Below, piece by piece: positions 19,583 through 64,000 of a DNA stretch of 64,000 nt (position 1 is the first letter of the stretch; each line of letters begins with the position of its first letter). The DNA comes from Acidobacteriota bacterium. GTDB lineage: Bacteria > Acidobacteriota > UBA6911. A model generated the notes under the pieces. The model made no database searches, was not told where the DNA came from, and saw nothing but the letters and a program-made list of their open reading frames with translations. The stretch spans positions 1,664,001-1,728,000 of the forward strand of contig OY761556.1 in NCBI GenBank assembly GCA_963664705.1, in the 5' to 3' direction. The translations under genes and the position numbers were made by a program.

Positions 19583-19909
19583 ATTTCACCATTACGGATA
19601 ATCGGTTTCAGTGCACCATTGCCAAAAAAGGAATGCATGAGGTTGATGGCCCGAGAAGAGGATCCGAATCAACTGCAAATGATCGGAAACCACGCGCAAC
19701 ATAGGCCAAATCTATAAGACGTGGGAGGCCTCAAAATATTACAGCTTCAGGTAAGTAATATTTAAGCCATACCTGTGATATATAGAAACGCACCGGAATA
19801 TATTTTCCGAAAGACTCACACGGATATCCGATGACAGCTGGATGGCGGACTTCACCGCGCATCTTGGGCGCGTTGCCAAACCAATTATTGAGATGAAACG
19901 AGGGATGGT

Positions 19910-21613
19910 ATGCGTAAATGGACTATTGCGCTTTTCATAGGGAGCCTTATTGTCCTGGCAAGTTTCAATCCTTGCCTGGCTCAATCGGGCAGGAAGGTTG
20001 CGGAGCCTCGGTTCAGGGTGCTCAACCCATGGGCGGAGGTGGACCCGATCGCACAGCGTGGAATCTCTCCAAGGCTGGATACGCTGGCGGGTAAGAAGAT
20101 AGGGCTCTTTTCCAACTTCAAGCGGGCGGCCCGACCCATTGTCGTGGAAGTTGAAAAGAGATTGAAGGCAATGTACCCGGACAGCGAAATCAGTTTCTTT
20201 GAGTCCCGTGGCGCCAATGTTGTGGAAACCGAAACAAAGAACCGCGAGCAGTTCAGCGCATGGGCAAAGCGTGTTGATGCCGTTGTCCTGGCGGTTGGCG
20301 ATTGAGGGTCCTGCACAAAGTTCCTCGTATATAACGGAATTGCTATCGAGGACTTTGGCCGGCCGGTTGTGCTACTGGCCAACAGGGGTTTTGTTACGGA
20401 TGCTCATTCAGCGGCATCGAGCCGAGGAATGGGCGGAATCCGCGTTCTGGGTACATCCATCCCATGCGAAACAAATGTAAAATCCGAAATTGAAGCAGGT
20501 GTTGCCGCCGCCATGCCTCGCATCGTCGAAGGATTGACCAGCGCGCTGACATCCGAAGAGAAATTTCCCAAACAGCAGATTGCCGTATCCCCGCGCATTG
20601 CATTTGTCGGAAGCTACGCGGAAGTGAACCGTTTCTTCTATAAAAATGGCTGGACCGATGGCCTTGCTATTGCGCCGCCGACGGAAACGGCCGTTGCAGA
20701 GATGATGACGGGGACGGATTTGCCACCAGGCCACATCGTAGGGAAGCTGATACCAAGGTTAGGAAAGGTCACGATTGAAAAAATTGCTATCAATGCGGTA
20801 ATGGCCGGCGCGCTTCCCACGCATATGCCGGTACTGATAGCGGCGGTGCAGGCGATGATGGATCAGCGGTCAAGGTTTGATACATTCGAAGTAAGTACTG
20901 GATCCTGGGCACCGTTCTTTGTCATCAATGGACCGATTCGGAATGATATCCATGTCAACTGTAGTTCCGGTGCACTAAGCCCCGGCAACATCGCAAATGC
21001 ATCCATTGGACGCGCCTTGGGTCTGATCGCAAAGAATATCGGCGGCGCGCGAAAAGGCGTGGAAGACATGGGTGTTTTTGGAAACCCGGGAAAATACAGT
21101 CTGGTTCTTGGAGAGTACGAGGAGGAAAGTCCGTGGGATCCGCTCCATGTCGATGGTGGTTTTAAAAAGGAAGATAGCACGTTGACATTTTTCCTGCCCA
21201 ATACGTATATCCAGACCATCCCGCGCGATACCAATGCCAAGGGTTTCGTCGAGACATATGCAAGTCTGAATCCTGGCAGCATGTCCTGCCTGCTGATCGT
21301 TCCATCTCATGCCAAAGTGCTGGCAAGCGAAGGTTGGACAAAAAAGAAAATCAAAGAATATATCCTGGAAAATTCGGCGCCGCCCTTTCCGACGGTTCAG
21401 GGCGGGCAGGGAACTCCAATCCAGCCGACCAAACTCAGCGCGGATGATCTTATGATTGTGGTGGCCGGCGGACCCGGCGCCTGGATCGGATTGTTGCGTA
21501 GTGCCGGTGGCTGGGAAAATAGTTTTGTCACAAAGAAGATACAGCTTCCGCGTGACTGGGACAAATTGGTATCCAAGTACAAAAATATTGTTCCTAACTA
21601 CGTAGGTTACTGA
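19910..21613 (+). CDS. Putative selenoprotein, UGSC family (thioredoxin-like UxxC) fused to its usual partner domain; signal peptide; Sec at TGA 20303-20305
   Basis: ORFs 19910-20305 and 20369-21613 are in frame with no stop except GAT-TGA-GGG-TCC-TGC (D-U-G-S-C); readthrough gives 567 aa; hairpin follows the TGA. Confidence 0.85.
20316..20357 (+). promoter_or_regulatory. Candidate bacterial SECIS element
   Basis: caaag-t-tcctcg...cgagga-ctttg stem starting 11 nt after the TGA; G-containing apical region (acgga) about 30 nt from the TGA. Confidence 0.65.
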
Positions 21614-21872: not shown

Positions 21873-22364
21873 ATGGCCGAAACCAAGTATGGGAAGTACA
21901 TTATCAAGGAACCTATGGAAAAGGGGCGGATGGCGCCATCGATCCATATATGTGCTGAGGATGGATGCCTTGGTGCACCTTTTTCCGGGTTTCCGGTTGA
22001 AGTTCAGTTGCTTACGATTACCGAACCGCTCTCATTTCCGCATCCCCCGCATATGCACGATGCCGATGAGCTCTTTTTCATCTTTGGGAGTAATCCCAAG
22101 AACTACTACGATTTCGATGCTGAGATCGAGATTTATTTCGGCGAGGAGAGAGAAAAGCATATCGTAAACTCCACCTCCATTGTCTACGTTCCCAAAGGCG
22201 TGTTGCACAGCCCGATTGCCATTACCAAGGTGAACAAGCCCTTCCAGTGGATGCATGTTCTCTTTACCCCCAAATATGACATGGCAAAGGGTGATGTAAC
22301 GCAGCATCCCTCTCATCCTCGTGAGAAATATACGATTGAGGAAATTAAGAATCTAAAGGGTTGA
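21873..22364 (+). CDS. Cupin-fold protein
   Basis: Cupin metal motifs PHMHDADELF and VYVPKGVLHSP; AAGGAGG RBS. Confidence 0.75.
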   Translation: MAETKYGKYIIKEPMEKGRMAPSIHICAEDGCLGAPFSGFPVEVQLLTITEPLSFPHPPHMHDADELFFIFGSNPKNYYDFDAEIEIYFGEEREKHIVNSTSIVYVPKGVLHSPIAITKVNKPFQWMHVLFTPKYDMAKGDVTQHPSHPREKYTIEEIKNLKG

Positions 22365-22446: not shown

Positions 22447-22543
22447 TGATTTGCCCGCCCTGTTTTATCTTGACAAAGACCCGCCCGGATAGCGTTATAT
22501 CTGACGCAAGAAGCAAACAACCAATCAATTGGGAGTCATTGGA

Positions 22544-23518
22544 ATGAAAGTCAAAATTTTACTTATGCTTACTGCGGTCATCGGAATGATCGCCTTATCT
22601 GGAACGGCTGCCCCGGCCCAATGCGATCGTCAATGTTTGGAAAAGATGATGAAAGATTACGTTGCGGCCATGGTGAAGCACGATCCTTCATCGCTTCCAT
22701 TTGCAGGCAATGTAAGGTTTACCGAGAATTCAGAAAAGACCATCGACGTACTGCCTATCGGGAAAGGGCTCTGGCAAACCGCTTCGTCAGGTCCGGACAG
22801 TTTTCAGATTTATGCCGCCGATCCGGTGGAACATGCAGCCGCCTGTCTTGCCATGATGAAAGAAAACGGCAAGGATATTTATTTCGGAGCCCGGATCAAA
22901 CTGAGTGAGGACGGCAAAATCACGGAAGTGGAACACATTGTTGTCCGGAATCAGCAATCGATGCCCACGCTTGTGAAGCCGCGCCCTGGCCTTTTGGAAG
23001 ATGTCTCCCCGGCCGAGCGGATGAAGCATTGGGATCTCGTTGGGATCGGGCTTTCCTATTATGATGCGCTGACCGGGGAAGACGGCACGCTGGCTCCATT
23101 CGCAAAAGGCTGTGAACGGCATGAAAACGGAATGATCACCGCTGGTGGCGCACCCGCTCCGAAAGATCAGACAATCCCTGGAGTCAAGCTCGATCCCGCA
23201 ATGGCGAAGATGCCGAGAGACTGCACGGGACAACTCAGCACCGGAACGTTCGCGTACATTACGGAAGTCAAGCCTCGACGCCTTGTCCTGGCCGATGTAC
23301 AGAAGGGAATCGCGGTCGGCTTTTCAATGTTCTATCACACCGGGGAATTGAAAACGATGAAGATCAAGGGAGTCCCCGGAGTTACCGAAATTCCGTCTTT
23401 TGATCAGCGATTTAATCTGCCCGCCATCCATTTCTTTAAGATCAGAAAGGGTCAGATTTATGAGATCGAGGCAGTTGGAACCATGATGCCTTATGGTATT
23501 TCGTCCAATTGGGAATAG
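22544..23518 (+). CDS. Exported conserved hypothetical protein (tandem NTF2-like domains likely)
   Basis: Signal peptide; CDRQCL..MKDYVAAMVKHDPSSLP...RFTEN; second half C.RHENG...HFFKIRKGQIYEIEAV. Confidence 0.7.
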   Translation: MKVKILLMLTAVIGMIALSGTAAPAQCDRQCLEKMMKDYVAAMVKHDPSSLPFAGNVRFTENSEKTIDVLPIGKGLWQTASSGPDSFQIYAADPVEHAAACLAMMKENGKDIYFGARIKLSEDGKITEVEHIVVRNQQSMPTLVKPRPGLLEDVSPAERMKHWDLVGIGLSYYDALTGEDGTLAPFAKGCERHENGMITAGGAPAPKDQTIPGVKLDPAMAKMPRDCTGQLSTGTFAYITEVKPRRLVLADVQKGIAVGFSMFYHTGELKTMKIKGVPGVTEIPSFDQRFNLPAIHFFKIRKGQIYEIEAVGTMMPYGISSNWE

Positions 23519-62783: not shown

Positions 62784-64000
62784 CTAATACCCCGCATAAA
62801 CAGGGACGACATCTTTATACTTTGCAACCAGCTTGTCCCAATTGCGCGGTAATTCGATCTTCTTTGTGATAAAGCCGTTTTCAATGCCTCCAACGCTACG
62901 AAGCATTCCCATCCAGGCCCCTGGCCCACCGGCTACGACGATGAGGAGTCCGTCGCTTTCCGCGGGAGGGGGTTGAGAAAGAACATCGGCATTTTCCTTC
63001 CTTGCAGGAAAAGGCGACGTTGCATTCTTTAGTATGAAATCCTTCAACTTGCTTTTAGTCCACCCTTCGGCCGAAAGCACTTTTGCGTGTGAGGGAATGA
63101 TGACGAGGCAAGACATGTTCCACGGTCCCATCGCTGCAAGCGATTGTGCAATTCCAAGAGCGCTTGTTTCCCGCGGAACACTCTGAACGTAGCTATTGGG
63201 AAAGAACAGGGTGACGGTATTGTCTTCCTTTTTAAATCCTCGTTCCACCTGCAGTGGCTCCCAGGGACTTTCCTCTTCACTTTCGCCCAAAACCAGGCTG
63301 TACTTGGATGGATTGCCGATGACGCCCATATCCTCAACACCCTTGCGGGCGCCTCCGATATTTTTGACGATAAGCCCCACGGCCCGTCCGATGGCAGAAT
63401 TAGCGATATTTCCCGGGCTCAAAGCGCCTGAGCTGTAATTGATGTGGATGTCATTCCGTATTGGTCCGTTGATAGCGAAAAATGGCGCCCAGGACCCGGT
63501 GCTGACCTCAAACGTATCGAATCGGGATTTCTGCTCCATCAGTGCCTGCACTGAGGCGATCAGAACCGGCATGTGGGTCGGGAGCGCTCCCGCCATCACG
63601 GCATTGACCGCGATCTTTTCTACCGTGGCGCGGCCCAGTCTCGGAATAATCTTGGTGACCAGGTGATCGGCCGGCAAATCGGTACCGGTCATCATCTCGG
63701 CCACAGCCTTCTCCGTCGGCGGCACGATCGGCAAGCCGTCGGTCCAGCCCTTGCGGTAGAAGAAGCGATTCACATCCTCATAATCCCCTTTGAAGACAAT
63801 TCTGGGAGGCTTGGCTGTGGACAGCTTTGGAGTTTTTTCATTCAAAGTAAGCGGCTTTGTCAGCATTTCAAGAATGCCCGGCATTGCGGCGGCAGTTCCG
63901 GCCTCGATATCAGCGGATACTGTCGATTCGCATGGTACGTTCAGCGGGAGAACCCGGATACCCGGAACGCCTTTGCTGGAAGCGGCGGAGTGTGCATCTG
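62784..64000 (-). CDS. Paralog of the UGSC-family fusion protein (5'-partial, runs off the window)
   Basis: Frame open to the edge (DAHSAASSKGVPGIRV...PCES) and colinear with 20369-21613 (GWTDGL..PPTE.AVAEMMTGTDLP, SRFDTFEVSTGSWAPFF, VVAGGPGAW, V.Y.GY*). Confidence 0.88.
   Translation of the reverse strand, partial: DAHSAASSKGVPGIRVLPLNVPCESTVSADIEAGTAAAMPGILEMLTKPLTLNEKTPKLSTAKPPRIVFKGDYEDVNRFFYRKGWTDGLPIVPPTEKAVAEMMTGTDLPADHLVTKIIPRLGRATVEKIAVNAVMAGALPTHMPVLIASVQALMEQKSRFDTFEVSTGSWAPFFAINGPIRNDIHINYSSGALSPGNIANSAIGRAVGLIVKNIGGARKGVEDMGVIGNPSKYSLVLGESEEESPWEPLQVERGFKKEDNTVTLFFPNSYVQSVPRETSALGIAQSLAAMGPWNMSCLVIIPSHAKVLSAEGWTKSKLKDFILKNATSPFPARKENADVLSQPPPAESDGLLIVVAGGPGAWMGMLRSVGGIENGFITKKIELPRNWDKLVAKYKDVVPVYAGY

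Follow-up and report, generated by a model that had tools for sequence, protein, structure and literature searches.

Introduction

UGSC selenoproteins are among the most abundant in the Global Ocean Sampling data, with 255 Sec sequences given in the text of Zhang and Gladyshev 2008 (PMC2398784), which assumes a thioredoxin-like fold for them. The same text, together with Fig. S1A, describes Global Ocean Sampling reads in which UGSC is joined to a second domain named 'Unknown_1', so that the fusion examined here, which the first-pass annotation had proposed, was already in print in 2008. The entries on the family in two reviews (PMC9312934 and PMC13188914) carry UGSC without a function, and as late as 2026 a review treats it as uncharacterised, in line with the earlier claim; a groundwater MAG study cited in PMC13188914 may bear on UGSC copy numbers. 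The hidden selenoprotein gene described here is real, and its family is functionally orphan.

Exported bacterial selenoproteins include the Tat-exported formate dehydrogenases, which are unrelated in sequence to the UGSC fusion. To our knowledge, neither these nor SaoB-like proteins form families of dozens of paralogues per genome. The known reductases of the GrdB/PrdB type are cytoplasmic. SaoB, an ABC substrate-binding protein (as presented in parts of bioRxiv 10.1101/2022.07.06.499078), resembles the present protein, whose Sec residue and signal sequence are predicted, in containing Sec, carrying a signal sequence and having been truncated by annotation, and is likewise unrelated in sequence. 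In D-proline reductase, as set out in the mechanistic portion of PMC11229817, the Sec of PrdB attacks a substrate held by PrdA, and the U151C variant is inactive.

Compared with the UGSC family as modelled by PF24696 and NF041046, the protein encoded here is alike in scoring above the Pfam cut-off, in its literal U-G-S-C motif and in the Sec/Cys pairs found among its homologues, but it is 567 aa long rather than about 180-200 aa, has a signal-peptide-like N-terminus and falls below the NF041046 cut-off. It shares domain order and partner family with the 2008 fusion, whose account in the text and Fig. S1A of PMC2398784 does not mention an export signal, a fold, how many copies a genome has or how the protein might work, and the Cys highlighted there in Unknown_1 is Ala301 here. 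With GrdB/GrdF/GrdH and PrdB (PF07355, TIGR01918) it has in common a strand-UxxC-helix-E-x-G-x-P-strand core and the pairing of a Sec domain with a larger partner; it differs from those systems in being a probably exported single chain with a non-GrdE-like partner. While the fusion is published, its relationship to GrdB/PrdB, the unmatched fold of its partner domain, its probable export and its genus-wide expansion were not found in the open-access literature and the few subscription papers covered.

Gene structure and selenocysteine recoding

The gene lies in a window of 64,000 nucleotides, the whole stretch of DNA analysed, within a genome assembled as a single contig of 6.89 Mb (98% complete, 6% contamination); its parts and neighbours are listed in Table 1. 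As first annotated, a 131-aa ORF (19910-20305) ends at GAT-TGA and the same frame continues through GGG TCC TGC, free of stops, into a 414-aa ORF (20369-21613). Reading the TGA as U yields 567 aa with the motif AVGD-U132-GSC135-TK, and the Pfam UGSC model spans the TGA with an E value of 7.6e-30 and 104.7 bits (cut-off 25). The NCBIfam equivalog NF041046 reaches 82.2 bits, under its cut-off of 125; four other fused homologues score 52-79 with this model and a fifth gives no score. The two apparent genes are very likely one gene of 567 codons with an internal TGA encoding selenocysteine. The final TGA is taken as a genuine stop because four close paralogues terminate there with TAG or TAA. Scans for promoters and terminators gave results at chance level.

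Table 1. Features of the UGSC/Unknown_1 locus, in window coordinates
Feature	Position	Strand	Remark
Likely ribosome-binding site, GAGGG, 5 nt 5' of the ATG	19900..19904	+	inferred from sequence
Single gene, UGSC/Unknown_1 fusion, 567 aa	19910..21613	+	readthrough of TGA 20303-20305
Predicted signal peptide, residues 1-24, cleavage between CLA and Q by eye	19910..19981	+	heuristic
UGSC domain PF24696, residues 37-210, predicted flavodoxin-like	20018..20539	+	profile and model
U132-G-S-C135 motif (TGA GGG TCC TGC)	20303..20314	+	end of strand 3 / start of helix
SECIS-like hairpin; core 20316-20357, bulged U, apical loop CGGAA 20335-20339	20313..20359	+	
Partner domain 'Unknown_1', residues about 222-567	20573..21610	+	without a Pfam family
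Cupin-like 163-aa protein, Pfam E 0.07, directly downstream, 16 in-genome paralogues	21873-22364	+	
Apparently secreted 329-aa protein, without Pfam/NCBIfam match	22529-23518	+	
Second paralogue, 3' part, 70% identical over residues 34-567	62784..64000	-	

That the internal TGA is recoded as Sec is almost certain from the comparative evidence, and the recoding originally proposed was borne out by a conserved TGA, Cys-bearing homologues, a hairpin and the finding of selA, selB, selC and selD. All 15 orthologues that cover the site (56-82% identity) have a stop codon there in an otherwise open frame, and this codon is always TGA; a 16th, L083, ends before the site and was left out. The nearest named orthologues come mostly from Acidobacteriota assemblies, one of them labelled UBA6911. 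Homologues with Cys in place of Sec, which had been suggested as a check, exist: among 86 full-length non-TGA homologues the position holds Cys in 29, Ala in 32, Leu in 12, Ser in 9 and other residues in 4, and the Cys-bearing intact proteins include P0196, P0177 and P0229 from the same clade. The Cys135 position is retained in more of these homologues (71/86) than the Sec position, and 14 of the 86 have no Cys at either. The Sec machinery that the recoding calls for is present in the genome, with two each of selA, selB and selD above cut-offs and two tRNA-Sec genes recognised by Rfam.

The hairpin noted at first sight lies exactly at its assigned position, with two further base pairs extending the core at its ends. 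Its folding energy of -15.6 kcal/mol corresponds to a z of -3.16 against dinucleotide shuffles and -2.15 against synonymous-codon shuffles, and its apical loop, which begins 29 nt past the UGA, fits the published bacterial SECIS model in the form applied here, a G-containing apical loop 16-37 nt after the UGA. When synonymous conservation was scored in 508 windows of 7 codons among 17 orthologues and close paralogues, the two arms of the hairpin ranked highest in the gene, at 0.87 where the average is 0.47 (sd 0.095), and the variable position (TTC/TAC) is the bulge. Covariation is weak, with 94% of cells paired, a change on both sides in 1 of 13 pairs, and a paired fraction that 48 of 500 shuffles also reach; the loop Gs vary, codon 143 being GGN in 15 of the 17 orthologues and close paralogues. 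The SECIS signal is also weak across paralogues, where the mean z is -0.68 for 31 Sec copies and -0.24 for 140 control windows (p 0.02), and a loose G-loop rule is passed by 24/31 Sec copies but also by 2/4 non-Sec copies.

That the TGA is instead an ordinary stop, with the locus coding for two proteins, being a pseudogene or containing a sequencing error, is extremely improbable. Such a reading would accord with the behaviour of gene callers, which split the gene, with the best 120 of 4845 database matches, all of them C-terminal pieces of 384-429 aa, and with the separate UGSC and partner gene pairs that occur in other phyla. Against it, the codon is TGA and never TAA or TAG in the 15 orthologues and in 31 paralogues, it falls in the middle of a Pfam domain where it aligns with the Cys of intact P0196 and P0177, and it is accompanied by a conserved hairpin and a complete Sec machinery. 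Since the best 120 of the 4845 matches are all C-terminal fragments, annotation appears to split the UGSC fusion gene systematically, which leaves the expansion described below invisible in annotations.

Expansion of the family

PF24696 is found at 35 places in this genome, 31 of which have one in-frame TGA. Every copy has both domains (35/35, 552-610 aa), no stand-alone partner was found in the genome, and every one of the 31 Sec copies has UxxC. The copies are strongly diverged, 30 of the 34 others being only 24-33% identical to the gene at 19910..21613. The second paralogue listed in Table 1 runs out of the window, with its TGA just beyond the edge. In the four non-Sec copies (L054, L066, L069, L076) the Sec position is taken by Leu, Ser, Asn or Met and never by Cys; three of them are without a signal peptide, and similar variants form conserved clades elsewhere. 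Two copies, L048 and L078 (G000:C1:3995147 and 6758057), are near-identical and 2.8 Mb apart, so that one may be a recent duplicate of the other, or the pair a repeat in the assembly.

Elsewhere in the genus, each of the 18 genomes tested gave between 9 and 45 matches, whereas 12 genomes from other families of the class have 0 or 1. In a sample of 401 genomes from the phylum, 36 outside the genus have at least one to three matches, with at most the best eight candidates scored per genome. Five genomes elsewhere, chosen because relatives had already been found in them, contain 19 (Dehalococcoidales), 24, 33 (Betaproteobacteria), 8 and 7 matches, fused or split. The 35 copies of this genome compare with one UGSC sequence in the Olavius symbiont metagenome as covered in the relevant part of PMC1976440. 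The terms 'seleno' and 'selenium' are absent from the text of a genomic study of the UBA6911 family, to which one 78%-identical orthologue belongs.

A rough in-genome selenoproteome scan, which recovered 15 of 31 known sites at its first setting and 30 of 31 after loosening, returned about 8 further candidates and SelD beside the 31 UGSC genes. Because the scan misses families lacking an in-genome Cys paralogue, about 40 Sec genes is a floor and the three-quarters share of UGSC an upper estimate. A floor of about 40 Sec genes puts this genome among the richest on record (39, 57 and 63), and it arrives there through one family. Other large families in the genome comprise about 21 AOR-like, 24 xanthine-dehydrogenase-like and 38 TonB-type receptor genes.

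Probable export

The 567-aa protein is most probably exported, judging from its N-terminus. The signal-peptide-like start recognised in the first reading is positive by a simple charge-plus-hydrophobicity rule, and after the predicted signal no 19-residue window exceeds a mean hydropathy of 1.55. The rule is passed by 12 of 12 clade orthologues, by none of three Dehalococcoidales relatives and by none of five relatives from other phyla. Signal-like starts are found in 28 of the 31 Sec copies (26 by the rule, one by virtue of a Tat-like motif and one, judged by eye, when an upstream ATG is taken as the start), compared with 1/4 non-Sec copies and 15/158 full-length non-TGA homologues that satisfy the rule; the background, obtained with a cruder choice of start, is 270/1036 similar-sized ORFs. 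Since all clade orthologues pass and the three Dehalococcoidales sisters begin right at the domain, the pattern would fit the gain of a signal peptide, the FastTree tree being midpoint-rooted.

Fold of the Sec domain and its relationship to GrdB/PrdB

An AlphaFold model of the two-domain protein built with 148 sequences (pLDDT 95.2, pTM 0.93) predicts for the Sec domain a flavodoxin-like fold of parallel alpha/beta/alpha type, in which U132 ends strand 3. Its best fold matches are flavodoxin-like and Rossmannoid, no thioredoxin fold occurs among the matches listed for the domain, and the order of its secondary structure is flavodoxin-like. The thioredoxin-like character that had been ascribed to the family is not supported, the profile matching GrdB/PrdB instead. 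A thioredoxin-like thiol-disulfide oxidoreductase or peroxidase acting on periplasmic proteins would place UxxC at the N-terminus of a helix, where the model puts it. Such a role is nevertheless quite improbable given the predicted flavodoxin-like fold, and general disulfide exchange needs neither an obligatory partner of 345 residues nor 35 diverged copies.

The profile comparison was carried out as a pairwise HH-align score over 68 columns rather than as a database search, with a GrdB/PrdB template of 16 readable UxxC regions out of 30 PF07355 loci from the phylum, of which L123 exceeds the TIGR01918 selenoprotein-B cut-off. The UGSC profile aligns with the GrdB/PrdB-like Sec regions at 96.4% (E 1e-9), with the U, the Cys at +3 and an invariant E147-x-x-G-x-P in register. 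The score stays at 93.9% with all Cys masked and drops to 0.3% for the reversed profile; the best of 125 unrelated in-genome families reaches 53.5%, Asp/Glu racemase 3.9% and HGD-D 9.6%. By this profile evidence, the UGSC Sec domain is homologous to the catalytic region of GrdB/PrdB and contains its UxxC core. One HGD-D family gene, L176 (G001:C28:22250-23293), has one TGA in frame midway through the domain and is a possible selenoprotein or a broken gene.

The other components of the known reductases were sought in the genome. PF07355 was not found in it at an E value of 1, and the same model matched 101 of the 401 phylum genomes. GrdE/PrdA (PF09338) was likewise not found in this genome, with positive controls scoring, nor was GrdA (PF04723) in three genomes of the genus (this one, G014 and G006), where two positive controls scored. 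With no GrdE/PrdA family member in the genome and a partner domain that is not GrdE-like, there is no evident pyruvoyl-type activation, and since GrdA was not found while its controls scored, release of the product by the motif's own Cys is favoured.

Partner domain

The partner domain carries the conserved motifs WTDGLP, PPT, AINAVMAG, STxS, NGP, ANxxIGRA and ExE..PW, together with the near-invariant polar residues T258, N363, N376 and E402 (93-99%). The Unknown_1 segment printed in Fig. S1A of PMC2398784, AVNGVMAGC...NGP, corresponds by eye to residues about 293-350, and the semi-conserved Cys of the domain is Ala in this protein (A301). Modelled alone, the domain is predicted confidently (pLDDT 94.2) and has no clear solved relative. 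A fold search of the PDB gave no clear match (best Z 6.0, rmsd 3.3, 84 of 346 residues aligned), and the best Foldseek hit, class I fumarate hydratase at E 0.02 with an rmsd of 15, was counted as no match. Sequence searches of the PDB returned 0 hits with the single protein and, with the profile, a designed protein at E 0.008 as the best; a search of the ESM Atlas returned unnamed clusters only. A missing PDB match is no proof of a new fold. As candidate identities for the domain, GrdE/PrdA-like, the GrdB N-terminal part, racemase and HGD-D all scored at or below 2.3% and were rejected, the comparison with GrdE (3 sequences) giving 0.23%. Five homologues, P0239, P0240, P0243, P0284 and P0340 (1226-1254 aa and about 713-717 aa), have two matched stretches each, which suggests tandem fusions and doubled partner domains.

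Genomic context

The neighbours of the gene at 19910..21613, an ABC ATPase, a cupin-like protein and a secreted protein of uncharacterised type, name no pathway; the 329-aa secreted protein has about 26 in-genome paralogues, five of them near UGSC copies. Across the 35 copies, a TonB-type receptor lies within 4 kb of 11 (2.4 expected), an aldehyde:ferredoxin oxidoreductase (AOR) is near 6 (1.1 expected) and a secreted 188-aa family of uncharacterised type is near 7 (0.4 expected), these enrichments being for 11 families picked after inspection, with clustered paralogues that are not independent. Outside this genome, a neighbour scan (76 ORFs, selected from 183 clusters) covered 30 loci, where TctC-type receptors occur at 7, Mo-hydroxylases at 4 and CoA-transferase III at 3; the genes around the homologues at those loci serve uptake and catabolism. 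Taking this genome and the others together, esterases, amidohydrolases and dehydratases often lie close by. A thioredoxin-reductase-like gene stands directly 3' of the fusion in two phyla (L091 at 312 bits and L108 at 307, with a cut-off of 343), and this genome has one DsbD.

One family of about 150-190 aa, secreted in most of its members (L109:2034-2597, L110:3476-4039 and six more), is without a Pfam/NCBIfam match, and 7 of its 8 copies lie no more than 4 kb from a UGSC fusion, two starting 11-14 nt past its stop. It is possible that this family is an accessory subunit of the fusion. The 188-aa secreted protein, which neighbours 7 of the UGSC paralogues, was considered as a redox partner and rejected, as its mature part is without a conserved Cys.

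Some of this context could also be expected if Sec132 and Cys135 were metal or iron-sulfur ligands, or if the protein were not an enzyme and served in the periplasm for binding or as a carrier. The TonB-type receptors, tungsten AORs and Mo-hydroxylases among the neighbours, the better retention of Cys135 than of the Sec position in non-TGA homologues (71/86) and the second-ranked fold match of the N-domain, chain 8s7v_H of a methyl-coenzyme M reductase activation complex (Z 10.5, rmsd 4.6, 139 aligned), all point in that direction. We nonetheless regard it as improbable, as the Z of 8s7v_H is tied with that of many unrelated alpha/beta folds, HGD-D reaches only 9.6%, and further Cys ligands are lacking, the semi-conserved Cys of the partner domain being A301 here.

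Proposed mechanism

On the strength of sequence and of the analogy with PrdB, the reading we favour, at a little under even odds, is that of a Sec-dependent enzyme resembling PrdB, which would act in the periplasm and cleave organic compounds reductively once they have been imported; its predicted role would be that of a single-chain version of component B of proline/glycine reductase. Of the uncharacterised periplasmic Sec redox enzyme envisaged at the outset, the Sec residue, the single chain and the probable export are supported, and the thioredoxin-like nature and the novelty of the fusion are not. Homology with GrdB/PrdB favours the same logic, here carried out within one chain. SelB acting on the hairpin would insert Sec132, and the signal peptide would take the chain out of the cytoplasm. 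The partner domain could then bind and position a small organic substrate, doing the job of PrdA/GrdE though not GrdE-homologous, so that the selenolate might attack the substrate and break a carbon-heteroatom bond. Cys135 would free the product via a selenenylsulfide, and a DsbD-fed periplasmic thioredoxin-like carrier could re-reduce the site, a task that thioredoxin reductase would perform in the cytoplasmic relatives. Each of the 35 copies, most of which share 24-33% identity with the present protein, might serve a different substrate.

The residues found at the Sec position temper this proposal. Variants of the AxxC, LxxC and SxxT types are common and form whole clades in the FastTree tree, and the 14 homologues without either motif Cys cannot use a Sec/Cys mechanism. 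The many homologues without Sec or Cys at the Sec position weaken a purely redox model and, together with those that have lost both Cys, keep alive the non-redox reading as well as the metal-ligand and binding one. In the non-redox case, Sec would attack covalently as a nucleophile with no net redox change, bringing about hydrolysis, group transfer, isomerisation or the transfer of sulfur or selenium, or the main site of catalysis would lie in the partner domain and be tuned by UxxC. The variant clades agree with this, as do the near-invariant T258, N363, N376 and E402 of the partner domain and the frequent esterase, amidohydrolase and dehydratase neighbours, and an exported enzyme of this kind would require no electron supply. 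We consider it somewhat unlikely, since all 31 Sec copies retain UxxC, the closest relatives of the domain to have been characterised are reductases, and thioredoxin-reductase-like genes are adjacent in two phyla.

Taking the reductive-cleavage proposal further, we tentatively suggest that UGSC/Unknown_1 could be an undescribed class of Sec catabolic enzymes, combining a GrdB/PrdB core with a substrate-binding domain of new fold and no pyruvoyl subunit, which one acidobacterial genus would have made periplasmic and multiplied into dozens of substrate-specific versions, making up about three quarters of a selenoproteome of at least 40 genes. If true, this would provide a function for an orphan selenoprotein that ranks among the most abundant of its kind in aquatic metagenomes, and would imply a selenium-dependent extracytoplasmic breakdown of organic matter. 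The single-chain, probably soluble form offers a complete enzyme to express and assay, with PrdB giving a concrete mechanistic model.

Second Sec cassette and tRNA calls

Two sets of Sec genes and two shapes of hairpin occur in this genome. The second cassette, L114 (G000:C1:3072596-3078309), consists of selB, selA, a selD fused to a CMD domain, and selC, and adjoins corrinoid/URO-D-type methyltransferase genes, a LysR regulator and an ArsM-like TGA gene. The idea that two SelBs serve two SECIS types was rejected, because only one selB is present in each of five relatives whose UGSC matches number 11-45; the single selB of these five relatives makes the second cassette look recently gained. 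A candidate third tRNA-Sec was likewise rejected, the 72-nt 'SeC' call by ARAGORN being no Rfam tRNA-Sec and having a mismatched acceptor stem. The call marks a degenerate tRNA-like element, L121, at G000:C1:1625651-1625722 on the minus strand, flanked by ORFs that by eye resemble rtcA and rtcR.
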